From Bacilli bacterium (lineage in GTDB: Bacteria; Bacillota_I; Bacilli_A; RF39; UBA660), in the NCBI GenBank assembly GCA_035392025.1, contig DAOPMC010000001.1, positions 68 to 64,067 on the forward strand: a DNA stretch of 64,000 bases, given 5' to 3'. Position numbers and translations under genes: made by a program. The notes beneath the pieces are model-generated. The model did no database searches. It saw only the letters and a program-made list of their open reading frames with translations, and was not told the origin of the DNA. Each line of letters starts with the position of its first letter. The first letter of the stretch is position 1. Positions 7,165-58,366 of the stretch are shown here, one piece after another.

Positions 7165-7171
7165 AAAATCA

Positions 7172-8344
7172 CTACTTTTCCCTAATATTCTTTAGACCAG
7201 GCAAATCTTTAGACCCGATATATTCTAATGCAGCTCCACCACCAGTAGATAAAAATGACAATTTATCTGCAAAACCAAATTGGTTGGCACAAGTAACAAT
7301 ATCTCCCCCACCAATTATGCTATACGTTCTTGAATTTGCAACAAACTCCAATATCTTTATTGTTCCCTCTTGATAATTTTTAAATTCATATACGCCTAAA
7401 GGCCCGTTCCAAAATAAAGTTTTGGCATCTGCTAATTCTTTTTTGAAAAATTCAACTGTTTTTGGACCAATATCAAGTCCCATTTGATATTTTTTTATTT
7501 GATCAGTCATAAGTGCTGGAGAATCAACAAATTCATTGCCTACTTTAAAATCAATTGGCAAAATAATTTTATCGTTATAATTATCTAAAATATTTTTACA
7601 AAATTCAATTTGATCATATTCTACTATTGATTTTCCAATTTCAATACCTTTTGCTTTTAAAAAAGTAAATGCCATTCCTCCACCTATTAATATTTTATCT
7701 GCCTTTACAACTAAATTTTCTATTACTTTAAGTTTGTCTGATACTTTAGATCCACCCATAATAACCATAAATGGTCTCTCTGGATTATCTAGTTTGTCTA
7801 ACTCATGCAATTCTTTTTCTACTAAAAATCCTATTGCACTTGATAAAAATGAAGATATCCCAACATTTGATGCATGTTCCCTATGTAGTGTGCCAAAAGC
7901 ATCATTAATAAATAATTCACCAAGACTAGCCCAATATTTAGCCAGTTCTTGATTATTTTTGCTTTCTTTTGAACCATCAATATCTTCAAACCTAGTATTT
8001 TCTAATAATAATGCTTCACCATATGGTAATGATTTAATAGCATTTTCTACTGCTAATCCTGTTGTTGCATTAACGAAATGTACTTTACCATTAAGAAGTT
8101 CATCCAATCTCTCGGCAACCGGTTTTAAACTATTGCTTTTAGCATCACTATAAGTCTTAACTTTTCCAAGATGTGATAAAATGATTGCTTTGCCACCATT
8201 ATCAAGAACATATTTAATAGTTTCAACACTCGCAATTATCCTACTATCATCAATGATTTTACCATTTTTAAGAGGTACATTCAAATCTGATCTAACTATT
8301 ACTGTTTTACCTTTTACATTAATATCCTTAACATTTACTTTCAT
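7172..8344 (-). CDS. pgk: Phosphoglycerate kinase
   Basis: 390 aa; conserved RSDLNVP N-terminus and the C-terminal GGGA/STGGGA motifs. Confidence 0.9.
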   Translation of the reverse strand: MKVNVKDINVKGKTVIVRSDLNVPLKNGKIIDDSRIIASVETIKYVLDNGGKAIILSHLGKVKTYSDAKSNSLKPVAERLDELLNGKVHFVNATTGLAVENAIKSLPYGEALLLENTRFEDIDGSKESKNNQELAKYWASLGELFINDAFGTLHREHASNVGISSFLSSAIGFLVEKELHELDKLDNPERPFMVIMGGSKVSDKLKVIENLVVKADKILIGGGMAFTFLKAKGIEIGKSIVEYDQIEFCKNILDNYNDKIILPIDFKVGNEFVDSPALMTDQIKKYQMGLDIGPKTVEFFKKELADAKTLFWNGPLGVYEFKNYQEGTIKILEFVANSRTYSIIGGGDIVTCANQFGFADKLSFLSTGGGAALEYIGSKDLPGLKNIREK

Positions 8345-8420
8345 TTAGTATCACCAATTATATTTTATCATATATTTTATTAAATAAAAGTGTTAAAATA
8401 TATTTAAGTGAGTTGATATT

Positions 8421-9599
8421 ATGAGAATTGGTTTGTTTTCTGAAGTATATTATCCATCAATTGGCGGTGTTGCAACTGCGATTACGACTTTAAAAAGAGG
8501 TTTAGAAGAGTTAGGACACGAAGTATACATCATAACAACTTCATACAATGATTTTAGATATTGTATAGAAGATAATGGTCATTTGATCAGGCTTTCTGGA
8601 ATGAAAAGCAATTTGTATGATTTTAGAATTACTGGCCCTATGCATCATAAAGCCTTTACATACTTAAAAAGTTTAAATCTAGATGTTATTCATATTCAGA
8701 CAGAATTTGGCGTTGGCATGTTTGGTAAGTCCGTTGCAAAATCTCTTAAGATTCCTCTAATTCATACCTTTCACACCTTATATACAGATGATGCATACTT
8801 AAACTATGTTCTCGGTGGTAATTTTAAACCACTTACTAAAAAAGCAATAGAAAAATACATCAAACTTTTTTGTAGCAAAAGCATAAATGCAATAACTGTT
8901 CCTTCAGAAAAAACCAAAGAAATTCTGGAAAACAAATATAAAATTAAAAGAAATATTTATGTCATATCAAACGGCATAGATTTAGAAAAATTTAATAAAT
9001 CTAACTTTTTAGAATCAGATATTAATAGTTTAAAGAAAATTTACGGCATTAGTAAAAATGATTTTATTCTTCTTTTTGCAGGTAGAGTTGCAGATGAAAA
9101 GAATATTGACTTTCTTATTAAGAATCATACTTCGATAATAAAAAAGAATAAACATGTAAAACTTTTAATTGCAGGCGGTGGTCCTGCACTTGATAAGTTA
9201 AAAGATTTAGTTAAAACCTTAAAATTAGAAAAAAATGTTATTTTTACAGATCGTATTGATCCTAAAAATATGAATAGATATTATCAATTAGGGAATGTCT
9301 TTGTCACTGCATCAACCAGTGAAACACAAGGATTGACAACAGTCGAGGCATTAGCTTCATCACTACCTGCTTTTTGTATTAATGACGATAGTTTTAAGAC
9401 AACAGTTATCCCTAACTACAATGGAGATTTGTTTATTGATAATATGGATTATATAGAAAAAATCATTAATATTGTAAATAACAAAAAATTGTTGCGACAA
9501 ATGGTGCTAAATTCAAGGATGAGCGTTGATAACTATAGTGCTAAAGGTTTTGCTAGCAATATGATAAAAGTATATGAATCATGCAAGAAAAAAAGATAG
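8421..9599 (+). CDS. GT4-family glycosyltransferase (diacylglycerol glucosyltransferase-like)
   Basis: YYPSIGGV N-terminal motif and the C-terminal E..G...EA GT-B motif; 392 aa; sits on the opposite strand between pgk and gap. Confidence 0.7.
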   Translation: MRIGLFSEVYYPSIGGVATAITTLKRGLEELGHEVYIITTSYNDFRYCIEDNGHLIRLSGMKSNLYDFRITGPMHHKAFTYLKSLNLDVIHIQTEFGVGMFGKSVAKSLKIPLIHTFHTLYTDDAYLNYVLGGNFKPLTKKAIEKYIKLFCSKSINAITVPSEKTKEILENKYKIKRNIYVISNGIDLEKFNKSNFLESDINSLKKIYGISKNDFILLFAGRVADEKNIDFLIKNHTSIIKKNKHVKLLIAGGGPALDKLKDLVKTLKLEKNVIFTDRIDPKNMNRYYQLGNVFVTASTSETQGLTTVEALASSLPAFCINDDSFKTTVIPNYNGDLFIDNMDYIEKIINIVNNKKLLRQMVLNSRMSVDNYSAKGFASNMIKVYESCKKKR

Positions 9600-9611
9600 T
9601 TGTCTATCTTT

Positions 9612-10631
9612 TTAAATTGTGTCTATTTCTTTTAAATTGCACCAATATTTGGCTGTTCTTACCATTTGTGCACTATAACCCATTTCGTTATCATACCAAG
9701 CCACCACTTTGGCCATCTGTTTTCCATCAACATCAAGAACTGAAGTACATTTTAAATCAACAACTGCACCATACAATTCACCAATAACATCACTCGATAC
9801 TATCGGATCATTAGTGTAAGTAATTGTGTTGTTTACATTTTCTTTATATAAATTATTTATTTCTTCTACTGTTGCATTCTTTGATAATTCTAATACCAAA
9901 TCAACAACAGAACCCGTTGTTACCGGAACTCTAAGCGCAGTCCCAGATAACTTATTATCTAATTTAGGAATTACCTTACCAATTGCTTTAGCAGCCCCTG
10001 TTGAGGTTGGTACTATATTTGCAGCTGATGCTCTACCTCTTCTAGATTCTATTCCCTTTTTATGAGCAACATCTAAGTTTGCTTGATCATTGGTATACGC
10101 ATGCACCGTGGTCATATATCCTTTTACTATACCAATATTGTCATCCAGTACTTTAAGTACTGGCGCTAAACAATTTGTAGTACAACTTGCTGCCGAAATT
10201 ATTTTTTCATCACCATTTAAAATATTTTCATTAACATTATAAACGATAGTTTTAGCATCACCTTTTGCAGGTGCTGATATTATTACTTTCTTAGCACCAG
10301 CAGAAATATGTGCTCTTGCTTTTTCAACATCAGTGAATGCTCCTGTACATTCAAATACAACATCTACGCCTAATTCTCGCCATGGTAAATTTAATGGATC
10401 TTTTTCTGCAAATATTTTTATTTCCTTATTCCCTACTATCAACAAGTTTTCCTTAAAATCAATATCTTCCTTACGATATGAGCGATAATTAGTATCATAC
10501 TTTAATAAATATGCTAATTGTTCTGCATCAGTTAAATCATTAATCGCTACAACATTTATATCGTTATCTTGATCCATTAACCTAAAAACTAATCTTCCTA
10601 TTCTTCCAAAACCATTTATTGCTACTTTCAT
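9612..10631 (-). CDS. gap: Glyceraldehyde-3-phosphate dehydrogenase
   Basis: INGFGRIGR NAD-binding N-terminus and the catalytic SCTTNCLAP motif. Confidence 0.9.
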   Translation of the reverse strand: MKVAINGFGRIGRLVFRLMDQDNDINVVAINDLTDAEQLAYLLKYDTNYRSYRKEDIDFKENLLIVGNKEIKIFAEKDPLNLPWRELGVDVVFECTGAFTDVEKARAHISAGAKKVIISAPAKGDAKTIVYNVNENILNGDEKIISAASCTTNCLAPVLKVLDDNIGIVKGYMTTVHAYTNDQANLDVAHKKGIESRRGRASAANIVPTSTGAAKAIGKVIPKLDNKLSGTALRVPVTTGSVVDLVLELSKNATVEEINNLYKENVNNTITYTNDPIVSSDVIGELYGAVVDLKCTSVLDVDGKQMAKVVAWYDNEMGYSAQMVRTAKYWCNLKEIDTI

Positions 10632-10649
10632 ATATTTCTCTCCTTCTAT

Positions 10650-12302
10650 TTAATTGTGGAAAAATCCACCACCAATAAATTCCTTTAATATTGCATCATC
10701 TGGTACATATCTATCCGGTATTACTAAAAATATTTTTAATAAATTCATAAGCCTTTTGGCATCATCATAATGTTTTGAATCAGGTGACACAGTATATAAG
10801 AGTGATTCTGCAAACATCTTTAATACACCCATTTCGTATAACATTGCAGTATTTAATACATAATCTGCCTCATCCTGATATGGAAAAACATATTCCTCTT
10901 CTCCTGCTCTTACCTCCCCCCACATATCAAATACTTGATCAACACTATATCCTCTAGTTCTATGATCTCTAACCATCCTTCTCAAAAATCTATTATCAGA
11001 AGATGATAATCTATTATATTTATCAATATTCAAATTTGTTAAAGGACACACATATATCTTAAATTTTTTATTTCGAGGAATAGATTTAGTAAGTTCTTCA
11101 TTGAGACAATGTAACCCTTCTATAATCATTACATCATTTTCATGAAGTTTTAAATTTTTCTCAAATGATTTTGTTCCAGTTACAAAATTAAATGTTGGCA
11201 CTGTAACTTCTTCTCCAGCAAGCAACTGATTCATCTGCTTATTAAATAATTCCAAATCTACCGCTCTTAATGCCTCAAAATCATATTTACCGTTTTCTTT
11301 TTTAGGTGTTTCTTCTCTTTCAACAAAATAATCATCAAGAGAAATCACAACTGGATTTACACCAAACGTTTTAAGATAAAGTGACAGTTTTCTTGCAGAT
11401 GTTGTTTTCCCTGATGATGATGGTCCTGCTATTAAAATCATTTTAATCTTATCTTTTTCACGATTAATTTTTTTGGCTAAACCTAATAGTTTACTGTCAT
11501 AAGTAAGTTCATTCATACGAATTACATCTTGTATCTTGTCATCCATAATAAGTTTATTGACATCTGCAACATATCTAATGTTGAGCATATTACCCCATTC
11601 TTTTAGGTCATCAAATGCTTCAAACATCTTCTCATGATGAACATACTCAGGTACTTTACCATCTAAATAACTTACCGGCGTTTGCAAAATAAATACTCTA
11701 TCTCGCATTAATTGCAATCTAAATTTTGTAAATACACTAGTATTTATAGGCATTTTGCTGTAAAAATATTCATTTAATCCGCCAAGTTTATATATATTTA
11801 TATATGTGTTCGTATTATATAAAAGAGAATCAGCTTTAACTTCGTTGCCTTTTGATTTATAATATTCGATTGCTTCTTTTCGCTTGACAACTATTTTATC
11901 TATTGGTAGGTTAGCTTTGACTACTTCATTCATTTTATCAGTTATTTTTTTTAATCCTTCTTCATCAACATCAAAATTAGTCTCAACATATAATCCTTTA
12001 TCAATTGCATGACTAATCTCTATATCCTTGTCTTCCCCAAAACACTCTTTAATAGCATATACTAAAAGATAGATAAGCCCCTTTTGATAAACTCTATTAC
12101 CTATCCGTCCAGAGCAATCATAAAATTCAACAATACTATCTTTTTCTATCTTATTATTTAATTCCATTAAATCATTATTAACTCTTGCAACTAAAATTGG
12201 ATATTTAAAATCTCCTTTAAAATCTTGTGCAATATCAATAAGCCTAATACCACTATCGTAGGCATATTTTTTACCATTATATTCAATATTTATTTTTGCC
12301 AT
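10650..12302 (-). CDS. Fusion protein: ThrRS-like N-terminal (TGS/second-additional-domain-like) region plus uridine-kinase/PRK-family P-loop nucleoside kinase domain
   Basis: The N-terminal about 250 aa resemble the threonyl-tRNA synthetase N-terminal region; the C-terminal domain has IAGPSSSGKTT Walker A and a DDYF-type uridine kinase family signature. Confidence 0.55.
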   Translation of the reverse strand: MAKINIEYNGKKYAYDSGIRLIDIAQDFKGDFKYPILVARVNNDLMELNNKIEKDSIVEFYDCSGRIGNRVYQKGLIYLLVYAIKECFGEDKDIEISHAIDKGLYVETNFDVDEEGLKKITDKMNEVVKANLPIDKIVVKRKEAIEYYKSKGNEVKADSLLYNTNTYINIYKLGGLNEYFYSKMPINTSVFTKFRLQLMRDRVFILQTPVSYLDGKVPEYVHHEKMFEAFDDLKEWGNMLNIRYVADVNKLIMDDKIQDVIRMNELTYDSKLLGLAKKINREKDKIKMILIAGPSSSGKTTSARKLSLYLKTFGVNPVVISLDDYFVEREETPKKENGKYDFEALRAVDLELFNKQMNQLLAGEEVTVPTFNFVTGTKSFEKNLKLHENDVMIIEGLHCLNEELTKSIPRNKKFKIYVCPLTNLNIDKYNRLSSSDNRFLRRMVRDHRTRGYSVDQVFDMWGEVRAGEEEYVFPYQDEADYVLNTAMLYEMGVLKMFAESLLYTVSPDSKHYDDAKRLMNLLKIFLVIPDRYVPDDAILKEFIGGGFFHN

Positions 12303-12408
12303 AATACCACACCTTTATTCTCTTACTATTTATATAATATCATATTTTGGGGATTTTTAATATGAATATTTATTGTTTTTTTATCTAATATAATTATAGG
12401 TGATAACA

Positions 12409-12978
12409 ATGAATTTAGTACCAGTAGTTGTCGAAAAAGAAACAGATTTTGAAAGAACTTATGATATATATTCCAGATTATTAAAAGATAGAATCATTAT
12501 TTTAAGTGGTGAAATAACAGATAATAGTGCCAATTGCATAGTAGCACAGCTTTTATATTTAGATTCTTTAGATCATAATGATATTAATCTATATATCAAT
12601 TCCCCTGGAGGATCAATTACCGCAGGCATGGCAATATATGACACTATGAATTTTATTAAAAGCGATGTGTCAACAACTTGCATTGGTATGTCTGCCTCTA
12701 TGGCAGCATTTCTATTATCAAGTGGTCAAAAAGACAAAAGATATATTCTTCCTAATGCTGAAGTTATGATTCATCAACCATTAGGCGGCGCAACAGGTCA
12801 GGCTACTGAAATAAAAATAGCAGCCGAACGAATTATAAAATTAAAAGAAAAAATTAATAATATTCTTTCAAATAATACTAATCAAACACTAGAAAAAATA
12901 GAGAGTGATACCGAAAGAGATTATTTTTTAGATGCAAAAGAAGCAAAAGAATATGGTATTATTGATAAAATATTATAA
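12409..12978 (+). CDS. clpP: ATP-dependent Clp protease proteolytic subunit
   Basis: Near-identical conserved core ([18 protein letters not shown], catalytic S/H/D). Start set at ATG 12409 (MNLVP...) with an AGGTGA RBS; the GTG at 12400 given by the ORF track is probably read-through. Confidence 0.9.
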
Positions 12979-39233: not shown

Positions 39234-40622
39234 TTACCCTCTTTCGTATTTGGTACCTTCGTTAGTATCAATTAATTTAATTCCTTTTTGTAAAAGCTCA
39301 TCTCTTATCTCATCTGCTTTTTTATAATCTTTATTTGCTTTTGCTATGTCACGTTCTTTTATTTTGTTAAGTATCTCTTCATCTACATTAAATTCTTCTT
39401 CTTTTGTTAGATCAAGTCCTAAAACTTTATCAAAATCTTCAATAACCGTTAATTTTGTGCATTCATTTAATTCATCATCTTTTAACAAATCATATATTGT
39501 AGTAAGCATCATCGCTGTATTTAAGTCATTTGCTATGGCATTCTCAAACTTAATAAAATATTTCTTTGCTAGTGCATCATCATACTCTCCAACATTCTTA
39601 TTAAGTGATAAAATTCTTTTTTTAAGTTTAAAGTATGTATTTTGTGCTATATCCAAAGACTCATATGAAAATACTAAATTATTTCTATAATGAGAGTTTA
39701 AACACATATATTTATAACTTAATGGATTATAATCTTTAGCCTTTAATAAATCAAGTGTTAAAAAATCTCCTTTTGATTTGCTCATTTTACCTGATTTATC
39801 ATTTAAATGATTAGAATGAACCCAATAATTACACCACTTGTGTCCAAATAAAGCTTCCGATTGTGCTATTTCGTTAGTATGATGTGGAAATATATTATCA
39901 ACACCACCACAGTGAATATCTAAATATTCTCCTAAATACTTAGATGCTATTATGGAACACTCTATGTGCCATCCAGGATATCCTATTCCCCAAGGAGAAT
40001 TCCATTTTTGTTCTTGATCATCAAACTTTGATTTAGTAAACCAAAGCCCAAAATCAAATGGATTTTTCTTTAATTCATCTTTTGTGACACTATCTCTAAC
40101 TCCAACAATCAAATCTTCTGCTTTTTTGCCCGATAATTTGAAGTATTCATTAGCTCTCGTTATATCAAAATAAATGTTACCGCCAGATTGATATGCATAT
40201 CCTTTATCAAGCAAAACTTTAATAGCTTCTATATAATCATTAATATGATCTGTTGCTTTTTCAACTATCTCAGGCCATTTTAAATTCAAATTATTAAAAT
40301 CTTCCCTAAAACATTTTGTATAAAAGGAAGCAATCTCTTGTGCGCTCTTATGCTCTCTTTTAGCACCTTCTACCATTTTATCAAGTCCAATATCAGCATC
40401 CCCAGCATTATGCCCAACATCAGTAATGTTCATAACTCTTTTTACTTTATATCCTAAATAGTTTAATCCTTTTTCAAATATATCTTCAAAAATATAACAT
40501 CTAAGATTACCTATATGAGCATAATGATAGACTGTAGGCCCACATGTATACATTGAAACCTCCCCATCATTATGTGGAATAAACTCTTCTTCTTTTTTCG
40601 TAAGTGTATTGTATATTTCCAT
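39234..40622 (-). CDS. cysS: Cysteine--tRNA ligase
   Basis: Class I HIGN and KMSKS motifs; 462 aa. Confidence 0.9.
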   Translation of the reverse strand: MEIYNTLTKKEEEFIPHNDGEVSMYTCGPTVYHYAHIGNLRCYIFEDIFEKGLNYLGYKVKRVMNITDVGHNAGDADIGLDKMVEGAKREHKSAQEIASFYTKCFREDFNNLNLKWPEIVEKATDHINDYIEAIKVLLDKGYAYQSGGNIYFDITRANEYFKLSGKKAEDLIVGVRDSVTKDELKKNPFDFGLWFTKSKFDDQEQKWNSPWGIGYPGWHIECSIIASKYLGEYLDIHCGGVDNIFPHHTNEIAQSEALFGHKWCNYWVHSNHLNDKSGKMSKSKGDFLTLDLLKAKDYNPLSYKYMCLNSHYRNNLVFSYESLDIAQNTYFKLKKRILSLNKNVGEYDDALAKKYFIKFENAIANDLNTAMMLTTIYDLLKDDELNECTKLTVIEDFDKVLGLDLTKEEEFNVDEEILNKIKERDIAKANKDYKKADEIRDELLQKGIKLIDTNEGTKYERG

Positions 40623-40675: not shown

Positions 40676-40703
40676 CAAGAAAAAAGATAGATTTTTCTAT
40701 CTT
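40676..40703 (-). terminator. Rho-independent terminator of the large TasA-like fusion gene
   Basis: AAGATAGA-TTTT-TCTATCTT hairpin followed (minus strand) by a T-run. Confidence 0.55.
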
Positions 40704-40721
40704 TAAAAACATAATTTATAT

Positions 40722-43133
40722 TTAATAATTTAAGTATAAATTAGTGCTGCCATCAAAATAATCTAAATTTGCATCGCACCAAGTCTGTGTAGGCTCATTA
40801 CCAGCACCAAATGTTTTCGTTAAGTCTACTAGCAGAGCCCCATCGGCGTATGCTAGAAAACTTCCTTCCATCCCGTCGGACGCTGCCGATTGCCACCTGC
40901 CATGTGTCATTTCAAAATAAGTCATATCGCTATAATCATCAGTATCAACAACCACACTCTTTTTGACCCAACCACTACTTAATTCTGTTGATGTTAGCGA
41001 TGTAGGAAGATTCTGTGTGCTTGCCGTCCTTACTTTGAATTCCAGCGTATACGTGCCAGTTGTATTTGTAACTAATTTGTGATCTATTTTATAATAATAA
41101 ATATGCCCCGCCTCAAATGTATATGTTTGGTAGATATATGAAGAATATAAATTACTAGCCATATTCGTACAAATAGAATTACTTCCAAATCTTGAATATG
41201 AAGAAGACGTTGCTGTGTAACTTCCAACAATACTCCATCCTGTCGTACTGTCTTCAAAGCTACCATTTGTAACTATATTAGCAACCGTATATTGGATTCC
41301 ATCATCCCAGGCAGTCACTCTCTGCCCAAGAGATGTTTCGGGTCCCTCAGTGTGTATTACAGTTACATATGTACTTCCATTACTTGAAACACTTGTTACA
41401 TTATTATAATACGTTCTGCCATCTGCCCAATAATGCCATACCGCTATTTCATCTAAATTGTATGAAGATCCTAAATCGATAACTACACATTGATTACCCG
41501 TTGTGCCCTTTGCATAATTTGCACTTGTTATATCACCGTCTGTTATATTTGATATTGGATATGTTGCATCGTTTGTTATCCCTGTTGCTGTTAGTCCTTT
41601 TGCTATATTTTCTCCTTGATATATTGCCTGAAATTCTACCCACTGATTATATGTACTAGTGCTGTTACCGTTTATACAATTCTTAATATATCTAACATTA
41701 TTTAACCTTGTGTTTAATCTAGTTGGGGATGTTGTTCCTACATATGTGATTGTTGCTTTGCCATTACCAGTATTTGATTCTGAAACCATCTCAGTATCTA
41801 TAAAATATTTATTACTATAATGAATGATATCATCCGATGCCACAGTTGATGTTGAGGAAGTTATTGCATTTGCTCCTGCATATCCACTTATGAATGACGA
41901 TCCGCCAGCTGCTGAACCTACCACTGAACTTGATACATTTCCAGAAGCGCCTCCATAATATCCACCGCCTCCGCCAGCAATATACATCCATTCAGCTGTA
42001 AAGGTTGGATAATATCCACCTATTCCAAACGAACCATTATATCCAGTACCATCAGCGATAACACCTCCTAGAGTTTGAGTACCTCCGCCTGATGGCGTCA
42101 AGGTAGTTGAACCAAGTTGGGTAACGTTTCCAGAACCGCCGTAAAGGCCCCCAGCGATACCACCATTATTGAAATAAGTATTTCCATCGGATATATTGGC
42201 TCCTCCTCCTCCTCCAGCCACCATTATTCTTGAATTAAGCCCTAATTCTGAATTCCACGCTAATTGATCTGACGTTGGAGTAGTTACCCCAAAATATCTT
42301 ATATCTGTCGCTCCACCACCATTTGAATTAGTCGAAACAGTCGCTCCACTTCTAACTGCTAGTGTCCCTCTTCCGCCACCATTAAAACTTAGCGCATCTT
42401 TCGCACCAGTATAATTTTCGCCAATATATATGTATAATATTTCACCAGCATCTAGAAAAATTTTACCATTGGTATATCCACCCAGACCTCCAGTTTTTGT
42501 TAAATCACCATATGTGCTATTTCCACCTTGTGCTCCCCATGCTTCTATATTATAATATCCAGTTTTTGGCACTATAAATTGATTATAACTTCCAGTATAT
42601 GCATATTCTATATTTGAACTACTTGTTGATACGGCATAAGTATTAGCTCCTAGACTTGGAAATGAATAATCTGTTGGCAATGCTTCAACGCTAAATGTAA
42701 CCGTCGTTGATGAATCTCCCGTATTTTTTAATATTATTACTACTTGTTTTTCAGTTGTTGCCCCAATATTTCCTGATGCTATATCAAAATTAGTTAGATA
42801 TTTAGCTGTTACTGTGCCTGTTGTTGTATATATAGTCCTATATTTTAATTCCCATGGTGCATTGTTTTCAACATCTAGGCTTAAAACAATAGTTTCTCCT
42901 GCTGCAATCGTAAGACCGGTTGTTGCAGATGAAATATTTGATGTTAACGTTATTGGATTAGAAGAAATTAAGATTGCAACAGCAGCGTTTTTTTGTGTCT
43001 GCACCTCTAAAATAGCATAAGAAAAACTTGAAATTATTATTAATAATCCCAATATTATTGTCATATACATATATAAACTTTTAACTTCTTTGGTTAAAAA
43101 TTTGGCAATTTTTTTCTTCATATTTATAGCCAC
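40722..43133 (-). CDS. Large secreted/surface protein P2: TasA-like N-terminal module plus glycine-rich domain plus discoidin (F5/8 type C)-like plus CBM4/9-like domains
   Basis: N-terminal basic segment and TM (SipW-cognate-like); then a TasA-like block (ITLTSNISS...LTIAAGETIVLSLDVEN...); the 190-620 region is rich in GGGG/GGxGG runs; then a W..F.....QCVVIDLG..Y.LDEIAVWHYW segment (discoidin-like); then NGSFEDS..GW (CBM_4_9-like start). Confidence 0.55.
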   Translation of the reverse strand: MAINMKKKIAKFLTKEVKSLYMYMTIILGLLIIISSFSYAILEVQTQKNAAVAILISSNPITLTSNISSATTGLTIAAGETIVLSLDVENNAPWELKYRTIYTTTGTVTAKYLTNFDIASGNIGATTEKQVVIILKNTGDSSTTVTFSVEALPTDYSFPSLGANTYAVSTSSSNIEYAYTGSYNQFIVPKTGYYNIEAWGAQGGNSTYGDLTKTGGLGGYTNGKIFLDAGEILYIYIGENYTGAKDALSFNGGGRGTLAVRSGATVSTNSNGGGATDIRYFGVTTPTSDQLAWNSELGLNSRIMVAGGGGGANISDGNTYFNNGGIAGGLYGGSGNVTQLGSTTLTPSGGGTQTLGGVIADGTGYNGSFGIGGYYPTFTAEWMYIAGGGGGYYGGASGNVSSSVVGSAAGGSSFISGYAGANAITSSTSTVASDDIIHYSNKYFIDTEMVSESNTGNGKATITYVGTTSPTRLNTRLNNVRYIKNCINGNSTSTYNQWVEFQAIYQGENIAKGLTATGITNDATYPISNITDGDITSANYAKGTTGNQCVVIDLGSSYNLDEIAVWHYWADGRTYYNNVTSVSSNGSTYVTVIHTEGPETSLGQRVTAWDDGIQYTVANIVTNGSFEDSTTGWSIVGSYTATSSSYSRFGSNSICTNMASNLYSSYIYQTYTFEAGHIYYYKIDHKLVTNTTGTYTLEFKVRTASTQNLPTSLTSTELSSGWVKKSVVVDTDDYSDMTYFEMTHGRWQSAASDGMEGSFLAYADGALLVDLTKTFGAGNEPTQTWCDANLDYFDGSTNLYLNY

Positions 43134-43183
43134 ACATTCTACTATTCTAAAATAATCTTATCACGATATTAACCTTTTGGCAA

Positions 43184-45427
43184 TTACTTAATCACCTTTA
43201 ATTCATCAATTTTAATGTCTTTTTCTCCATCTAATAATTTCCCAAGAATGACAGAATCAATATAGTTGTCAATTATTTTATTTATCTTTCTAGCCCCATA
43301 GATGTTATATTCTGACAATCTAATTATTTCACCAACTAGTTTATTATTAAATTTAATGTTTAATTCTTCGCCCTTATAACTGTTTATTAGTAAGTTTAAA
43401 CTGTCTTTTACTATATCACTTATTATATCTTCAGTCATGTTATTAAAATATGATATATAATCCAGTCTGTTCAATATTTCAATACCTATTTTATTTTTTA
43501 AAATTTCATAATATTTTTCTTCATTAGTACTATTAAATCCTACTTTATTAATATTATTTTTAATATTAAATGTCATAATTATTATATTATTATCAAACCT
43601 TATCTCTTCCCCTTTGGAATTTTTAATTTTGCCATCATCAAGAATTTGCAAAAAAAGCTCTATAACATTTCTATGTGCCTTATCTATTTCATCCAAAAGT
43701 ATTACTGAATGTGGTTTCTCTTTTATCTCTTCTAATATATTTTTATTATCGCTATATCCAATATATCCTGGAGGAGATCCTATTATTTTGCTAATACTGT
43801 GTGCCTCTTTATATTCGCTCATATCAATTTTAATAAAATTATTTATGCCTAAAAATTCTTTAGTATATTCCTTAGCTAAAAATGTCTTGCCTGTTCCGGT
43901 TGAACCAGCAAATAAAATTGAAATTGGTTTGTTTTTTGTTCTAATATTTAAACATACTTTTTTACTTATATTTATAAGTTTATCTATTGTTGCTTCTTGC
44001 CCCTTGACCTTATCTAATAAATGTCTTCTAAGTTTAGTGGTATCATATATCATTTCATATACCGGGATCTTTGACTTGGCTTTTATCACATCCATTATAT
44101 CTTGTTTAGTAACTTCTTTAATAGTTTTATTATTGACCATTAAAATTTCTAAATTATTTATTTCATCTTCTATTTTTATTTCTTGCTCTTTATACATTGT
44201 TGCTTCTTGAAAATTATTATTAATAATCGCTTTGTTTTTCTTGTCTTTAACTAGGGCATGTTCTAAATTTAATTCTCTTATCTTGTTATTGTCTTCATTA
44301 TTTGATAATGCTACTTTTGACGATGCCTCATCCATAACATCTATTGCTTTGTCAGGCATTTTCCGATCATACAAAAATTTATCTGATAAGTAAATAATAT
44401 CGTTAATTGTATCATTACTTATTCTTACTTGGTGGAAGTTTTCATATATTGGTTTTATTTTAAGTAAAATGTCTTTCGTTTCTTCTATAGTTGGTTCACA
44501 TATATCAATTATTTGAAACCTTCTATCAAGTGCTTTATCTTCCATTATAGTTTTTTTATATTCTTCTTTAGTCGTAGCTCCGATCACTTTTATTTTGCCT
44601 CTGGCTAGTGCTGGTTTAAATATATTAGAAGCATCTATTGCGCCCTCTGCTCCTCCAGCTCCAACTAATGTATGGATTTCATCTATGAAAATGATAATAT
44701 TATTATTATTTTCTAGTTCTTTTATAATTTTGCTTACTCTATCTTCAAATTCACCTCTATACTTGGTTCCCGCTACTAAATTTGACATTGAGATCGAAAT
44801 AATTTTCTTGTTCTTTAAATTTGCGCCTACCCTATCTTCTACAATTCTTCTTGCAAGTTCTTCTACTATTGCAGTTTTCCCTACCCCTGCTTCTCCTAAT
44901 AATAGTGGATTATTTTTAGTTCTTCTGCCTAATATTTCCATTATTCTATCTATTTCTTTTTCCCTGCCTACAACAGGATCTATTTCCTTATTTATAACCT
45001 TTTTATTCAAATCAACGCCAAAAGTTTCTACATATAATTTATTATGTGTTTTAGGTTTATTAAAATCACTAACAAATTCATTATATATATCATTAATTTT
45101 AATATTCATTCCCAACATAAGTCTAATAGCGATTCCTTCTCCTTCATCAAATAATGCCAGCAAAAGATCATCAACTTCAACATAATCTTTATTTTTATCT
45201 TCACTATCACATATTGCATTATATATTATATTTTTTAGAAGAGGAGTATACAAAAAGAATTCACTTTTGATTTTTCCTAACCCAATAACTTTGATTAATT
45301 CGTTTTTAAACGTTGTATATGTAACTCCATATTTCTTAAGTTTTACTACATATTCATTGTCTTTATTCTTCAATATTGCTAGCATCAAATGCTCACTTCC
45401 AACATACGGATGGCATAATGCTTGCAT
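43184..45427 (-). CDS. clpC: ATP-dependent Clp protease ATP-binding subunit ClpC/ClpE-like (N-terminus disrupted by a frameshift; the true start is probably ATG at 45483)
   Basis: Two AAA modules (GEAGVGKTA; GSTGTGKTF) and a Clp_N repeat. The ATG at 45483-45481 with an AGGAGG RBS gives MFRNLVKKQKRF-stop, but a +1 shift at the AGAAATTT homopolymer gives MFRKFSEEAKKILINAKKEMQALCHPYVGSEHLMLAIL, which is collinear with the ClpC N-terminus. Confidence 0.8.
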   Translation of the reverse strand: MQALCHPYVGSEHLMLAILKNKDNEYVVKLKKYGVTYTTFKNELIKVIGLGKIKSEFFLYTPLLKNIIYNAICDSEDKNKDYVEVDDLLLALFDEGEGIAIRLMLGMNIKINDIYNEFVSDFNKPKTHNKLYVETFGVDLNKKVINKEIDPVVGREKEIDRIMEILGRRTKNNPLLLGEAGVGKTAIVEELARRIVEDRVGANLKNKKIISISMSNLVAGTKYRGEFEDRVSKIIKELENNNNIIIFIDEIHTLVGAGGAEGAIDASNIFKPALARGKIKVIGATTKEEYKKTIMEDKALDRRFQIIDICEPTIEETKDILLKIKPIYENFHQVRISNDTINDIIYLSDKFLYDRKMPDKAIDVMDEASSKVALSNNEDNNKIRELNLEHALVKDKKNKAIINNNFQEATMYKEQEIKIEDEINNLEILMVNNKTIKEVTKQDIMDVIKAKSKIPVYEMIYDTTKLRRHLLDKVKGQEATIDKLINISKKVCLNIRTKNKPISILFAGSTGTGKTFLAKEYTKEFLGINNFIKIDMSEYKEAHSISKIIGSPPGYIGYSDNKNILEEIKEKPHSVILLDEIDKAHRNVIELFLQILDDGKIKNSKGEEIRFDNNIIIMTFNIKNNINKVGFNSTNEEKYYEILKNKIGIEILNRLDYISYFNNMTEDIISDIVKDSLNLLINSYKGEELNIKFNNKLVGEIIRLSEYNIYGARKINKIIDNYIDSVILGKLLDGEKDIKIDELKVIK

Positions 45428-45602: not shown

Positions 45603-46424
45603 TTATTTAAACCCTAGTTGAGTTCTATACTCGACTGGGGTTTTATAATTTAATGCAAAACTTGGGCGATAATTGTTATTATCCCAAACAATATTATCAA
45701 TAAATTCCTGAACTGTGTTATAATTATTCTTGTCAAAATCAATATGCATTTCTTTCTTCATCCAGCCATTTTTTGATTCGATGACTGGATTATCAGTAGG
45801 AGTTCCAGCTCGCGACATAGACCTGGTTATTTTATAAGAATTAAATATATTGTTGAATGACACTGAGGAATATACGGCTCCTTGATCTGTGTGGACAATA
45901 GTCTCAAGGTTTTCATATCCTCTTTTTATTTTACTATCTAGCATATTATTTAATGATTTCTTATGATTTAAAATGCCGTTTCCATGCATTGATTCTCTTA
46001 CGTCATAACCAACAATTTCATTATTAAAAACATCCAAATAAAAAGTCCAATCGTATGGTTTACCCTTAAAACCTATTGTTGTTGTATCAGATACAATTAT
46101 TTCGAATGGCCTTGACGTAGACCAATTACCTAAAATTATATTCTTAAATTTAATGGATTCATCTCCTGCAGGTTTATATTTATAATGTTTAGCTTTTGAT
46201 TTTATTTTTAATATTTTACATAATTTATGAACTAAATTGTTTGATACATACCATCCTGTTTCCCTTCTTATTATTGCATTAATTCTTTTATAACCATAAC
46301 TAGGTTTCCTCTTATGAATTTCTTTTATTAATTCTCCTAAATCTTTTCTGTTAATTTCATAATTGTTTAATATATCTTTATTCTTCATCCATTTATAATA
46401 TCCTGATCTTGAAACTTTTAACAT
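45603..46424 (-). CDS. IS3-family transposase OrfB (integrase catalytic core); the frame continues upstream to the frameshift site at about 46540
   Basis: rve-domain motifs (HTDQGAVYSS; D...E spacing). Upstream in the same frame reads ...EVTQIKYEIIELLSKEYNIKSLCIMLKVSRSGYYKWM, the typical OrfAB junction. Confidence 0.85.
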   Translation of the reverse strand: MLKVSRSGYYKWMKNKDILNNYEINRKDLGELIKEIHKRKPSYGYKRINAIIRRETGWYVSNNLVHKLCKILKIKSKAKHYKYKPAGDESIKFKNIILGNWSTSRPFEIIVSDTTTIGFKGKPYDWTFYLDVFNNEIVGYDVRESMHGNGILNHKKSLNNMLDSKIKRGYENLETIVHTDQGAVYSSVSFNNIFNSYKITRSMSRAGTPTDNPVIESKNGWMKKEMHIDFDKNNYNTVQEFIDNIVWDNNNYRPSFALNYKTPVEYRTQLGFK

Positions 46425-46489
46425 TATACATAAAGATTTAATATTATACTCTTTACTTAGTAATTCAATTATTTCATACTTTATCTGTG

Positions 46490-46837
46490 TTACTTCATGA
46501 ATTTTACAATTGAACCATCTCCTTTCGTTAGGTATCCTTTTTTTAATAATTCATTTTCGATTCTTAATTTCATATTTTCATATTCTAATTGTTCTTCCTT
46601 CGTTAACTCTTTTTTTCTAGAATATTTCATCAAAGGATTACCAGGCTTAGTTTTATTTTTTAAGCCTTCAATGCCAGATTCATTATACTTTTTTACCCAA
46701 TTGAAAATTAATCCAATATTAATGCCTGTTTCTCTAGAAACCTGTGATTGACTCTTTTCATTATTAATAATTGGTTTAATTATTTCATACTTTTCGTTTT
46801 CCGTTCTAATCATTTGTTTTTGACCTTTTTTAGCCAT
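46490..46837 (-). CDS. IS3-family transposase OrfA (HTH plus leucine zipper)
   Basis: 115 aa; N-terminal HTH (SQVSRETGIN), C-terminal heptad Leu repeats; ends just past the AAAAAAAG slippery site. Confidence 0.85.
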   Translation of the reverse strand: MAKKGQKQMIRTENEKYEIIKPIINNEKSQSQVSRETGINIGLIFNWVKKYNESGIEGLKNKTKPGNPLMKYSRKKELTKEEQLEYENMKLRIENELLKKGYLTKGDGSIVKFMK

Positions 46838-46932: not shown

Positions 46933-48471
46933 TTAAATTAAATACATTAATGTAAATAATATCAAGCAAACTACCAATATGCCAACAAATACTTTCCAAA
47001 TATATTTGATCCAATCTAGATATGAAGTATCTGTATATGATAATGTTGCAATTAATAATAATCCTGTAGGCATTATTAATGACATTAAACTAAATAAGCT
47101 TGTAAACATCATACCTATAAGTGGATAAATGGTAGAATCTGCAAATATTCCAGAAATGAATGTTAATTCATTTTGTGCAAAATAACCAATTTCAACATTA
47201 AATATACTATTAATCATAATTGCAAAACTTGTTGTTAATACATTAAATTTTTCAGTAATAGTTAAGAAGAAATTAGAGATATTTAAAAATACTGGATTAT
47301 AAACTGTAATAATTAGAATTGCATAAGCTACCGCAATTAATAATGCTGGTAATAATGCCTTTTTAGCACCATCTAACATTGATTTTAAATAATCACTAAA
47401 TTTGACTTTATAAATTATTGCAATAAGTATTGATGCAAGAGCGATAAGAATTGCATAGGCATCAAAACTTGCATAGCCATATGAATCAATTCCCCATGTT
47501 CCAAATGCTGGAAAATTTCCAAAAATTTTACTAAATATAGCAAAACCGCCTATTTTTACATTCATGATCTTAGTATATATGTCTTGAAACCATGTTATGC
47601 CAGCAGCTCCAGACCAATCAAATGATCCAATAATCATTATTACTAAAACTAAACTAAATACTACAATTAGTGGCCAAAGCGGAGTTTTCTTATTTTTGTC
47701 TTTCTTTTCTTTAACTCCATCATTAATAATTTTAATTCCACAATGAGGACATATCTTTGACTTGTCATCAATCTTTTTGCCACATTCTTTGCACTTAATT
47801 AGTTCTGCCTTTTTACTTGAATCTTCTTTTACTAATGCAGGTGAAGACTGTTTCTTTGCTTTTTTACCTTTTCTTACATATAGCATAGTAAATAACACTA
47901 ATAATCCTATGCCAAGTATTAATAAAATACATTTCATCAATGTTTCTGTTGCATAATTTAATGAAAGTGTAGAATTTACATTTGAGAACATACTTGCTGA
48001 ATATAATGAACCAATCATACCAACAATTGTTCCACCTAATGTTGCACCTACTGCTACGATTTTATCATAACCCATTGCCATAATTAAAGATATTAAGAAT
48101 GGGAAGAATGCAAACATCGCAAACTCTAATCCAACAAAAGATGATAAAATTGCTAATATTGCAATTATTGCAACCAAAACTAATTCTTTTCTCTTTTTAA
48201 ATTTGTTGGCAATTGCTTCAATAAACCTTTCATATACTCCTGTTGCTCCTAATACTCCATATAATGCTCCTGTTAATAAAACAAAAACCATTATGCCAGA
48301 GAAAAATCTAAATGAATAGAATACATATTGAATCATGTCATATAGCCCAAGCTGTGCTCTATCTCCTAATGATATCTCTCCAGAGTAACTAGCAGTTTTA
48401 AATACCCAGGTTAGGATAACTGCTACCAAAAATGTGATACCTAAAATTTTGAATAAACTGTTTTTCTTCAT
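46933..48471 (-). CDS. YfcC/DcuC-like family membrane transporter with an inserted cytoplasmic zinc-ribbon
   Basis: About 12 TM segments with YfcC-like blocks (...LTWV..; ...LISLIMAMGYDKI...); a central loop carries CKECGKK...CPHCG (4-Cys zinc ribbon). Confidence 0.6.
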   Translation of the reverse strand: MKKNSLFKILGITFLVAVILTWVFKTASYSGEISLGDRAQLGLYDMIQYVFYSFRFFSGIMVFVLLTGALYGVLGATGVYERFIEAIANKFKKRKELVLVAIIAILAILSSFVGLEFAMFAFFPFLISLIMAMGYDKIVAVGATLGGTIVGMIGSLYSASMFSNVNSTLSLNYATETLMKCILLILGIGLLVLFTMLYVRKGKKAKKQSSPALVKEDSSKKAELIKCKECGKKIDDKSKICPHCGIKIINDGVKEKKDKNKKTPLWPLIVVFSLVLVIMIIGSFDWSGAAGITWFQDIYTKIMNVKIGGFAIFSKIFGNFPAFGTWGIDSYGYASFDAYAILIALASILIAIIYKVKFSDYLKSMLDGAKKALLPALLIAVAYAILIITVYNPVFLNISNFFLTITEKFNVLTTSFAIMINSIFNVEIGYFAQNELTFISGIFADSTIYPLIGMMFTSLFSLMSLIMPTGLLLIATLSYTDTSYLDWIKYIWKVFVGILVVCLILFTLMYLI

Positions 48472-51489: not shown

Positions 51490-51774
51490 ATGTCTAATAT
51501 ATCAAATGCCATTAATATGAGTTTCAGGGTTGACAAAAATTTAAAAAAGCAAGCCGATGAATTGTTTAAAAACCTAGGAATGAATACAAGTGTTGCTTTA
51601 AACATGTTTCTAACGCAAAGCGTTAGAGAACAAAGTATACCTTTTATTTCTACAATGGATATTCCCAATAGAAGATTGCTTAACGCTTTAGAAGAAGTTG
51701 AAGCTATTGAAAGCGGGAAAATCAAAGCAAAACATTACGCAAGTTTTGATGAAGTACTAAAGGATGTTGATTAG
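51490..51774 (+). CDS. dinJ: Type II antitoxin, RelB/DinJ family
   Basis: 94 aa; N-terminal RHH-like SFRVDKNLKKQADELFKNLGMNTSVALNMFL typical of DinJ; stop overlaps the start of the downstream toxin gene. Confidence 0.7.
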   Translation: MSNISNAINMSFRVDKNLKKQADELFKNLGMNTSVALNMFLTQSVREQSIPFISTMDIPNRRLLNALEEVEAIESGKIKAKHYASFDEVLKDVD

Positions 51775-52055
51775 TGAAATATAAGATAATCATAACTGGT
51801 TCTTTTAAAAAACAATTGAAATTGATCAAAAAGAGAAAAAAGGATTTGGAAAAATTAACTATAGTAATTAATAGTTTGGCAAGCAATAAAAAACTAGACA
51901 AAAAATATAGAGATCACGCACTAACTAATAATATACAATTTAAAGATTGTAGAGAATGTCATATAGAACCGGATTGGCTCCTTGTTTATAAAAAGAATGA
52001 TAATGATTTAATTTTATTTCTAATTGAAACAGGCACCCATAGTGATTTATTCTAA
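51774..52055 (+). CDS. yafQ: Type II toxin, YafQ/RelE family mRNA interferase
   Basis: 93 aa; conserved ...KKY.DH.LTNN...CRECHI.PDWLLVYK...L.L..TGTHSDLF pattern of YafQ; GTG/ATG start coupled to the dinJ stop. Confidence 0.7.
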   Translation: MKYKIIITGSFKKQLKLIKKRKKDLEKLTIVINSLASNKKLDKKYRDHALTNNIQFKDCRECHIEPDWLLVYKKNDNDLILFLIETGTHSDLF

Positions 52056-56788: not shown

Positions 56789-58366
56789 TTACATCTCAGT
56801 TACAACATATGGATCAGCACTAGTTCCAGTACCTGTCACTTTAACTGTTGGTGCTAAATTTATTACAGGATATACATCCATAGAAGTGCTAGTAGATGTG
56901 CTGATAACTTCACCAATACTATTTGTCGATAACATATATGAAACACTGTTACTATATCCATAGGCAGACATGGTAAAATATGATGAAGTTTGTCTTAATA
57001 TATTAAATTTATTGATAACTCCAAGTTTTAATCCTGCGTATATTAGTTCATCACTTGATAACAATCCTATTTTTACATCATATAGATATGAATTAGAACA
57101 GGCATATGATGGAGAACCACTATTTGCCCTAGTATATGCTGAAGATGTATCATTACAGAAACTAGCTGATGATACAAATTTATCATAGTTTGATAAAGTA
57201 GAATCATACCATGATTCTAAACTCGTTTTAATCGCTGAATCCTCTGTTCCACTTCCACCATCATAAGTATACCCCAAATACGTAGATGCATTTGATAGAG
57301 CGTTATATGTACTTGCAGTTCCTGTTGCTGTTGTTTTAACTAATCTTATAGTATCATCTTCATTAACCCTAACAATTCGCCAATTTGAACCTGCAAATAA
57401 AACATAATTATTTATAATGTTTCCTCGATAAAAATATGTATCCTTACTATCTTGCCCAGTTACTTTATATACCCCGTTTTCCACAGTATATAATGATTGT
57501 GCACCATTATTATTATAATAACTCGTACATGTCGTTAAATTATAGTTTGCATTGTTTGAATCACAATATTGGCAATAATCACTGACATAATAATTACCCA
57601 TTGTGTCACACACTTTAGTTTGATAGTCTGAAACTGATGTTGGGGCATTATCATAATATGTTGAACTTGCAGCAGCTTTGGTAGTTGTAATTGCAGTTGT
57701 AATAACATTTTCTTCATCTTCTCCAATTATCAAATCTTTTAATAATAATGGTGTCTCCTGAGAAGAAGATACTATTAACTTTTTATGAAAATGTCTTCCT
57801 ACTATGCTACTTGGTGCATCTGATTTTATCCAAGTATTTAGTGAATATGTAACAGATGCTCCTACATTTAATGATACTCTTAATATTTGTCCTCCTGTAG
57901 TTAGTTCCATAGGTTCATAAGTAATTGAGTTTGTCTCATCTATTAACTGATATCTAACATTATTATTATCAAGCAGATTAGAATTACATCCACAAGTCGT
58001 AATTGCATCCGTATCGTTTTCTAAAGTTAAAGTTACGATTGCTTTTACATTGCCACTATTTGTTACTCTAAATTTATATGGTGTTTGTAATATTCCTTCC
58101 GCATCACTTTTAGGAAGTGCATTGGTAAGTGATATTGTGCCGCCTAGACCAGTTGCTGTATCATCAAAAGTAACACTAAGAGAACCAACAGTTACCGTAT
58201 TATGCCCAGTTCCTTCATCTAAATCAGTAAATATGGCAAAACTAGAACCCGCAATTAAAAATACTAACACAAAAATTGATATGAAACTTATAATTGCTTC
58301 CTTACCATATTTTTGTATTAATCTTTCTTTTTTTAATTTTAAGTATCCTAGTCTTTCTTTTTCCAT
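56789..58366 (-). CDS. TasA/camelysin-like secreted protein, paralog P3 (525 aa, extended C-terminal region)
   Basis: Basic N-terminus plus TM, then AGSSFAIFTDLDEGTGHNTVTVGSLSVTF...ISLTNALPKSD...YKFRVTNSGNVKAIVTL, which aligns with the SipW-cognate signal region and N-terminal domain of B. subtilis TasA (AFND...TFASGTLDL...NLSNLKPGD...FQFENNGSLAIK). Confidence 0.65.
   Translation of the reverse strand: MEKERLGYLKLKKERLIQKYGKEAIISFISIFVLVFLIAGSSFAIFTDLDEGTGHNTVTVGSLSVTFDDTATGLGGTISLTNALPKSDAEGILQTPYKFRVTNSGNVKAIVTLTLENDTDAITTCGCNSNLLDNNNVRYQLIDETNSITYEPMELTTGGQILRVSLNVGASVTYSLNTWIKSDAPSSIVGRHFHKKLIVSSSQETPLLLKDLIIGEDEENVITTAITTTKAAASSTYYDNAPTSVSDYQTKVCDTMGNYYVSDYCQYCDSNNANYNLTTCTSYYNNNGAQSLYTVENGVYKVTGQDSKDTYFYRGNIINNYVLFAGSNWRIVRVNEDDTIRLVKTTATGTASTYNALSNASTYLGYTYDGGSGTEDSAIKTSLESWYDSTLSNYDKFVSSASFCNDTSSAYTRANSGSPSYACSNSYLYDVKIGLLSSDELIYAGLKLGVINKFNILRQTSSYFTMSAYGYSNSVSYMLSTNSIGEVISTSTSTSMDVYPVINLAPTVKVTGTGTSADPYVVTEM

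Follow-up and report, generated by a model that had tools for sequence, protein, structure and literature searches.

An ALK/LTK-type glycine-rich domain behind a predicted export leader in a multi-module protein of uncultured Bacilli

A single gene between clpC and cysS

We analysed a 64-kb window (the whole stretch of DNA studied, 64,000 nucleotides of contig DAOPMC010000001.1 from a Bacilli bacterium), which derives from a metagenome assembly and carries on its minus strand, at positions 40722-43133, a gene for a long protein with a glycine-rich centre, referred to here as the query. One uninterrupted open reading frame (ORF) fills this interval, with 803 codons in a single frame counted from a GTG and a TAA stop at 40724-40722. 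The probable start is an ATG at 43121, giving 799 amino acids (aa), and the public gene call on the same metagenome contig (ENA ERZ27257452, k141_656773) also begins there. An exact look-up of the GTG-start protein returned no record; the ATG form is on record, and the identical protein is recorded on three contigs. An earlier reading, made from the sequence alone, had described an 803-aa ORF at this position; the frame is real and unbroken, but it lies on the minus strand and probably starts at the ATG. The plus-strand translation of the same interval is riddled with stops, and a plus-strand reading was ruled out on that ground. The gene is flanked by clpC (43184-45427) and cysS (39234-40622).

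The glycine-rich module

The centre of the query, aa 172-470 (41724-42620, minus strand), is a TNF-like plus glycine-rich (TG) supradomain recognised by Pfam, AlphaFold2 (AF2), Foldseek and PHROGs. In ALK and LTK the TG module is the ligand-binding ectodomain, and its glycine-rich domain (GRD) is structurally odd, its known occurrences being animal receptors and a few phage fibre tips. The Pfam family PF12810 (ALK_LTK_GRD) matched the query at aa 190-464 with 124.8 bits against a cut-off of 24.5 (E=7.5e-36), and the match, which is far beyond chance, spans profile positions 6-242 of 243. Glycine accounts for 22.8% of aa 190-470 versus 6.9% elsewhere, with 15 runs of two or more glycines.

An AF2 model of aa 166-620, built with 36 homologues, reached a predicted local distance difference test score (pLDDT) of 90.2 and a predicted template modelling score (pTM) of 0.90, the latter predicting a fixed interface between the TG and discoidin parts. 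In this model, beta-strands at both ends frame long glycine-rich stretches that have pLDDT above 90 and no helix or strand by DSSP, an indirect hint at a lattice of polyglycine-II helices. When the model was compared with the PDB by Foldseek, ranks 1-21 were all ALK/LTK TG domains (E 1e-8 to 8e-6, about 340 aligned columns), followed by two weak matches, to the Bxb1 tail tip (E=4.6e-3) and the fibre of cyanophage Pam3 (E=0.03). The GRD also matches PHROGs 7388, 1589 and 5811 (E 1e-35 to 1e-30). The presence in the query of an ALK_LTK_GRD/TG supradomain, a TNF-like beta-sandwich with the glycine-rich region set into it, is thus confirmed, as the sequence-only reading had suspected from its glycine runs. 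The motifs quoted in that reading are all present (GGLGGYTNGKIFLDAGEILYIYIG, AGGGGGAN, AGGGGGYYGGASG, QCVVIDLG...IAVWHYW and NGSFEDSTTGW) and the domain order that it gave is correct. Its glycine-rich block, placed at residues of about 190-620, is real but ends near aa 470, with aa 474-612 discoidin-like and aa 613-803 resembling a carbohydrate-binding module (CBM). In the Pam3 fibre, a TG-type module forms the receptor-recognising tip (PMC9608196). The TG module is a binding device wherever it has been studied.

Discoidin-like and C-terminal modules

Discoidin/CBM32 and CBM4/9/16 domains are lectin folds, and both kinds appear to follow the TG module. The first, a discoidin or F5/8 type C (CBM32-like) domain at aa 474-612 (41298-41714, minus strand), was assigned from profiles, mainly at the level of the family. 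On its own, the query domain remained sub-threshold for PF22633 (24.0 bits vs 27.8, E=6e-5) and PF00754 (18.5 bits vs 28.2, E=2e-3). Among 23 aligned homologues, PF22633 was found in 22 (best 1.8e-8) and PF00754 in 18. A profile of the family matched the CBM32 structure 4a3z in the PDB with E=4.4e-4, and three further CBM32 sequences (4a42; 2rv9; 4zy9/4zxe) only with E=0.016-0.018; the domain is also matched by phrog_21973, annotated 'tail protein' (E=6.5e-15). Eight strands are predicted for the domain in the AF2 model. Foldseek listed no discoidin match for the two-domain model (aa 166-620), so that the assignment rests on the profiles.

The second, at aa 613-764 (40842-41297, minus strand), opens with NGSFEDSTTGW and is, by family profile, a putative jelly-roll of the CBM_4_9 superfamily (CBM4/9/16/22-like). 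A search with aa 616-803 of the query alone met no Pfam family at E<=1. CBM_4_9 (PF02018) was matched by 7 of 18 aligned family members (best 7.4e-8), and the orthologous C-terminal domain at locus L036 scored 35 bits against its threshold of 25.9. Compared with the PDB, the C-domain profile (alignment A3) found the CBM16 structure 2zex at E=6.7e-8, covering 145 of 147 residues. Family profiles therefore support both a discoidin/CBM32-like domain and a CBM_4_9-superfamily module, and the two calls of the sequence-only reading stand, carried by the homologues where the query alone falls short. The protein closes with a conserved tail, LVDLTKTFGAGNEPTQTWCDANLDYFDG, at aa ~765-803 (40725-40841, minus strand), recognised from alignment A3 and from tail-only BLAST matches in other homologues. 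Its consensus is LxDLTxxFGxGNEPxxWC, and throughout the family in that alignment L, T, F, E, P, W and C never vary.

Leader and N-terminal head

The leader, aa 5-40 (43014-43121, minus strand), was delimited from the sequence, a comparison of N-termini and alignment A1. Its n-region is rich in Lys, its hydrophobic core is 18 aa long and S-Y-A (aa 38-40) occupies -3/-1; a signal-peptidase site is predicted after A40, with Ile41 as the predicted first mature residue. Leaders of the same type are found on SipW-linked TasA-like proteins. A prepilin reading of 'AK-FLTKE' was rejected, as Lys rather than Gly occupies -1 (...IAK-FLTKE) and N_methyl gave no match. No C-terminal sortase signal, S-layer homology (SLH) domain or cell-wall anchor was found in the query, so any tethering must be N-terminal.

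The head module, aa 41-171 (42621-43013, minus strand), was defined by AF2, jackhmmer, hhalign and fold matches. In the AF2 monomer, the first 21 mature residues are disordered and are followed by an immunoglobulin (Ig)-like beta-sandwich of about 110 aa, with core pLDDT above 90. A word-indexed homologue search with the 185-aa N-module gave no match despite the presence of P0001, which is 85% identical, showing that negatives for short low-complexity-like queries are untrustworthy; head homologues were therefore sought by local jackhmmer and an exhaustive profile search. By hhalign, the query head subfamily aligns with a larger head family at 96% probability (E=3.8e-9, 97 columns). This family comprises 5,628 cluster representatives in the exhaustive search, always at the N-terminus of proteins of 168-2,133 aa. 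Stand-alone heads (<=230 aa) make up 36 of its top 139 members; in others the head is fused to cargo, namely Bact_surface_Ig-like (16), BspA leucine-rich repeats (13), HupY/LrrG (12), GRD (6) and DUF285/PARCEL (4), with Gli349-like modules also among the adhesin cargo.

The sequence-only reading had called the head TasA-like. Neither Peptidase_M73 (PF12389) nor the TasA NCBIfam model (NF046066) matched the query or its isolated N-module, and the modelled head fold matched only generic Ig/PapD-like structures, with no TasA among them and no TasA-type jelly-roll. Among 124 scanned relatives in the head family, PF12389 was touched by 12 (best 2.8e-7) and the TasA NCBIfam model by one, weakly. Proteins encoded next to P0028, a full-length homologue, reached 21.8 bits vs 22.5 for PF12389, over profile positions 10-74 only, and in two of them the match comprises the leader and the first ~50-60 mature residues. 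Since these links from relatives are weak and N-terminal-only, and the tests on the query were negative, we do not count the head as part of the TasA family. The head resembles TasA in its leader, in its N-terminal strand and in the genes that keep it company, with no demonstrable shared fold. The earlier label thus survives in the S-Y-A leader, in the profile link to the head family and in the sipW/tasA-like operon that accompanies a sister subfamily (see below), but not in fold or profile.

A motif scan of the window found a second head-bearing protein, of 525 aa, at 56789-58366 on the minus strand, with a ..SFA leader and a head (AGSSFAIFTD...TVTVGSLSVTF; jackhmmer E=3e-19) ahead of a Cys-rich C-terminal half that matches nothing in Pfam, NCBIfam or PHROGs. 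At least two proteins of this genome thus carry cargo on the head. A tblastn search for paralogues of any of the four parts of the query elsewhere in the window found none.

Homologues and exchange of modules

A full-length search returned more than 1,600 homologues, at most named 'glycine-rich protein [Bacilli bacterium]'. GRD and discoidin form a conserved unit in 113 of 120 matches, with the discoidin part 55-80% identical among the best matches. Homologues P0021, P0028 and P0033 (776-816 aa) have the glycine-rich, discoidin and C-terminal parts in the order of the query; P0021 opens with a pilin-like leader, and P0028 and P0033 also have the N-terminal module of the query, so that homologous fusions with the same full architecture do exist; the sequence-only reading had proposed a check for orthologous fusions. 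Its alternative of two genes split by a frameshift is ruled out by the single frame and by these homologues.

The N-terminus of the family is exchangeable. In a rough motif count over 214 unique GRD proteins, at least 66 have a ..YA.. leader and at least 64 a type IV pilin-like one, on the same GRD-discoidin core; these pattern-based classes are crude, with about a third of the sequences falling into 'other', many of them visibly one of the two classes or fragments. The type IV pilin is a filament-incorporation module. Pilin-headed homologues (for example P0008, P0012, P0017, P0027 and P0072) have GFTLIE-type and degenerate leaders and match Pfam N_methyl.

The C-terminus varies as well, being CBM_4_9-like, Laminin_G_3, Flg_new or Bact_surface_Ig-like across the family. 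Three short proteins (P0122, P0124 and P0123, 262-314 aa) combine a canonical or degenerate pilin N-terminus with the CBM_4_9-like domain of the query and a LxDLTxxFGAGNEPxxWCD tail, and are modular pilins bearing the lectin of the query. At the orthologous locus L008 of a related strain, which has 88% nucleotide identity, the same flanks and no IS3, Laminin_G_3 (E=2.8e-17) stands in place of the CBM_4_9-like module, and at L036 the C-domain is in a separate ORF. At L008, 4997-5668, an in-frame TAA follows the discoidin domain and Laminin_G_3 resumes six codons on in the same frame. Either a single GRD-discoidin-LamG gene has been broken by a nonsense mutation or a sequencing error, or the split is real.

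The GTDB representative genomes hold at least 483 confirmed GRD loci. Among the 80 loci listed, those with a usable label come from metagenome-assembled genomes (MAGs) of uncultured gut 'Bacilli', 'Tenericutes' or the like, and several genomes have at least six copies; many MAG organism labels ('Muribaculaceae', 'Pseudomonadales') look unreliable and were not used for taxonomy. The family comes from gut Bacilli of humans, rabbits, ruminants and birds.

A sipW operon in relatives

Beside a sister subfamily of the query, an operon of one to three tasA-like genes, sipW and a GRD gene is kept in four genomes (L004, L012, L036 and L040). Its tandem head-only genes encode proteins of about 200 aa, and its SipW-type peptidase (TIGR02228, 85 bits vs a cut-off of 51.9) is 287-367 aa long with a long acidic C-terminal extension. 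At three of the four loci, an ORF for a membrane protein of 165-170 aa lies between sipW and the GRD gene. P0028 (803 aa, with the same architecture as the query) is encoded directly downstream of three tandem head-only proteins of about 200 aa and a SipW-type peptidase. At L004 the operon occupies 6952-12412, and at L004 and L040 a McrBC-like pair (AAA + DUF2357) comes next.

Genomic setting of the query gene

The conserved housekeeping block around the query gene also has lysS, a Zn-peptidase gene, mini-RNase III (mrnC), rlmB and a sigma-factor gene. In the gap that separates the ORF start from the clpC stop lies a promoter-like site with a TG (TTGCCA-17-TAAGAT, 43155-43183, minus strand), weak and a consensus match only. 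An AT-rich hairpin, AAAGATAG-AAAAAT-CTATCTTT, followed by a T run (40680-40704, minus strand), starts 18 nucleotides past the stop codon and reads as a candidate intrinsic terminator; a terminator pattern scan missed it because the scan demands three G-C pairs. Given the promoter-like site upstream and the hairpin with its T run after the stop, the gene appears to be transcribed as a unit of its own. The host genome has a guanine-plus-cytosine (GC) content of about 28% and encodes MurD, FemAB, Spo0A, YabP, YabG and SpoVG, genes that identify the host as a walled, spore-forming, low-GC Firmicute.

Further along the window, an IS3-family element (HTH_Tnp_1/HTH_28 orfA and rve orfB) occupies 45603-46837 on the minus strand, between a DcuC-type transporter gene and clpC. 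It is missing from the related strain at L008, a locus that is otherwise collinear, with 88-98% nucleotide identity on both sides. In the DcuC/CitMHS-type transporter (512 aa; 46933-48471, minus strand), aa 224-248 are an inserted zinc-ribbon motif (PF13240/PF13248), an unusual pairing. A RelB antitoxin and YafQ-ParE toxin pair lies between dus and ftsH at ~51490-52055 on the plus strand (coordinates converted from L001).

Proposed role and alternatives

With roughly even confidence, we favour the view that the query is a Sec-exported, N-terminally tethered multi-module adhesin, probably fibre-borne, of uncultured low-GC spore-forming gut Bacilli. A signal peptidase, of type I or of the SipW type, would remove its leader (aa 5-40) by cleavage behind S-Y-A, and the mature N-terminus would be a flexible strand of ~20 residues, followed by the small Ig-like sandwich. 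The head, which belongs to a large family occurring alone (~170-230 aa, sometimes in tandem by sipW) or fused to cargo, may couple the protein to a TasA-like fibre or a head polymer, probably through donation of its N-terminal strand, and the protein would then be a minor subunit or form the tip, the part that a modular type IV pilin plays in its pilus. The cargo would be a rigid TG plus discoidin/CBM32 unit followed by a swappable C-terminal lectin module, here CBM4/9/16-like, and the target of these modules may be a glycan or surface ligand, be it on other microbes, on dietary particles or on host mucus.

Because the same cargo is found on a pilin or on this head, and because heads also occur as tandem stand-alone subunits by sipW, we infer that the head loads the protein onto a TasA-like fibre. 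This reasoning follows the modular pilins PilB and PilC of Streptococcus sanguinis, which bear a von Willebrand factor A (vWA) module and a ConA-like lectin, respectively (PMC8179133, PMC9934059). It also echoes the vWA-domain protein BsaC of the sipW-bsaA-bsaB-bsaC operon of Clostridium perfringens, which, like the tapA-sipW-tasA operon of Bacillus subtilis, is a system of the TasA/BsaA-type SipW-dependent matrix fibres (PMC9674648, PMC11580942). The phrase 'fibre-tip or adhesin variant' in the sequence-only reading is a reasonable inference, strengthened by the pilin-headed paralogues.

Several observations weigh against a fibre-borne adhesin. No sipW, stand-alone head or pilus gene was found anywhere in the 64-kb window, where the query gene stands alone between clpC and cysS. 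S-Y-A suits any type I signal peptidase under the ordinary -3/-1 rule, and the query head subfamily has lost the G-x-L-x-L motif of the head family (alignment A1). A clean head-family profile searched against the PDB found neither TasA nor AbpA, and the archaeal bundling protein AbpX was reached only at E=0.036 with an earlier head profile. For the TG module, the Foldseek template modelling (TM) scores to ALK/LTK were only 0.33-0.45, low values that indicate a like topology and not a tight superposition.

The main rival, which we consider possible rather than probable, is the same surface or secreted lectin-type adhesin without a fibre role, exported by an ordinary signal peptide or held by an uncleaved anchor, with the Ig-like module serving as a stalk only. 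The absence of sipW and stand-alone head genes from the window, the generic Ig/PapD-like head without a TasA match and the ordinary cleavage motif all speak for it, and homologue loci L005 and L006 also stand alone among housekeeping genes. It leaves unexplained, however, why stand-alone heads of 170-230 aa are found in tandem by sipW directly upstream of GRD genes in four genomes, and why an alternative type IV pilin head sits on the same cargo.

We regard as very improbable an origin from a phage or tailocin, the query being a receptor-binding protein left in the chromosome and acting on other bacteria. In its favour, in addition to the PHROG matches of the GRD and the discoidin domain and the Foldseek matches to the Bxb1 tail tip and the Pam3 fibre, 43 phage records of the Clostridium/Clostridioides/Bacillus group carry the GRD. 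In Clostridioides difficile phage CDMH1, the only locus inspected, the GRD protein comes directly after the baseplate and tail-fibre genes, at a tail-fibre position, and the IS3 element lies near the query gene. However, the phage matches cover only 15-18% of the query at 34-42% identity, the query has an export leader, which tail fibres lack, and many chromosomal paralogues have secretion or pilin leaders. No phage structural, lysis or integrase genes lie around the gene, whose neighbours are clpC, cysS, mrnC and rlmB, and the locus is kept without the IS in the related strain (L008); a prophage origin was rejected on this context.

That the ORF is an artefact, either genes joined by assembly or sequencing error or a decaying pseudogene, is scarcely credible, for in spite of the metagenome assembly, the in-frame TAA between the discoidin and lectin modules at L008 and the separate C-domain ORF at L036, there is a single 803-codon frame with an identical protein on three contigs, independent homologues of 776-816 aa share the part order (P0028 and P0033 with the same head), and the AF2 models of the head and of the glycine-rich plus discoidin part are of high confidence.

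Each of the domains is already known, as are adhesin modules on fibre subunits in the case of pilins, and GRD proteins are generically annotated. The sequence-only reading had not seen such an architecture described; no paper was found that does so, but the architecture is not rare, with more than 1,600 homologues, and is very common in metagenomes. In the literature, we found nothing on GRD proteins at the surface of bacterial cells, 'PF12810' being mentioned in one paper only, an unrelated one, and no description of cargo-bearing heads of the ..YA type.

Returning to an exported and probably fibre-borne adhesin, a wider proposal can be made, which we offer tentatively and consider rather doubtful. 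In it, the ..YA-leader/Ig-like head would mark out a further class of modular fibre subunits, so far undescribed and parallel to the modular type IV pilins, by which, in gut bacteria of the monoderm type, stand-alone heads polymerise into a SipW-processed fibre and cargo-bearing heads load adhesins onto it. The TG plus discoidin pair would be a portable tip-adhesin unit that passes between three unrelated filament systems, namely phage tail fibres, type IV pili and TasA-like fibres, and would stand for the prokaryotic pool that gave rise to the ligand-binding domain of animal ALK/LTK. The family findings have a meaning of their own: the ALK/LTK-type glycine-rich domain is also the core of a very large surface-protein family, multi-copy in uncultured gut Bacilli, and one core with two alternative heads and swappable lectin tails suggests how small-genome gut bacteria diversify adhesion. 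The more than 5,600 clusters with this head may be overlooked modular fibre subunits. If confirmed, the proposal would supply adhesin candidates for organisms still beyond cultivation and would set the origin of the ALK ligand-binding domain in a prokaryotic context.

Comparison with known systems

Like ALK and LTK (PF12810; PDB 7NX4, 7LS0, 7N00, 7NX1 and 7LIR), the query gives a full-length Pfam match, and near-whole targets are aligned in the top 21 structures. Both have N- and C-terminal beta-strands around long glycine-rich stretches, a layout predicted for the query by the AF2 model. The query differs in its 15-22% identity and TM-scores of 0.33-0.45, and in having no EGF-like, transmembrane or kinase parts. 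Its TG module, unlike theirs, is carried by a bacterial export leader and has lectin domains behind it. Binding of ALKAL cytokines by the query is not expected.

In phage tail-fibre tips (Pam3 gp24, 7YPX; Bxb1, 9D93; S16 gp38; CDMH1 gp30, a 'glycine rich family protein'), a TG-type module lies at the distal, receptor-recognising end. Phage proteins and PHROGs share sequence with the query in the GRD only, plus the discoidin domain for one PHROG. Unlike these tips, the query has a secretion leader, another N-terminal head and a chromosomal housekeeping context, and no trimerisation helix or chaperone gene was seen.

Multi-CBM surface proteins that combine CBM32 with CBM4/9/16/22 domains resemble the query at the profile level in its middle and C-terminal domains. 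In contrast to them, the query has no glycoside hydrolase or other catalytic domain. Its C-domain has the extra invariant tail, which is not aligned to the CBM16 structures, their matches ending before it.

TasA/BsaA-type SipW-dependent fibres share with the query the type of leader and, in the AF2 model, a disordered N-terminal segment as would be expected of a donor strand. In the operon of the sister subfamily, a large cargo protein is encoded together with a SipW-type peptidase and tasA-like genes, which resembles the placing of bsaC in the bsa operon. Unlike TasA and BsaA, the query has no Peptidase_M73 match and no sipW in the window, and neither fold nor profile searches found a convincing TasA, AbpA or AbpX.

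Compared with modular type IV pilins, the query itself has no prepilin motif, its head being a ..SYA leader with an Ig-like sandwich. Like them, it carries a binding module on a small N-terminal head, which in the pilins is a fibre subunit, and about a third of its homologues are literally such pilins, with the same GRD-discoidin core.

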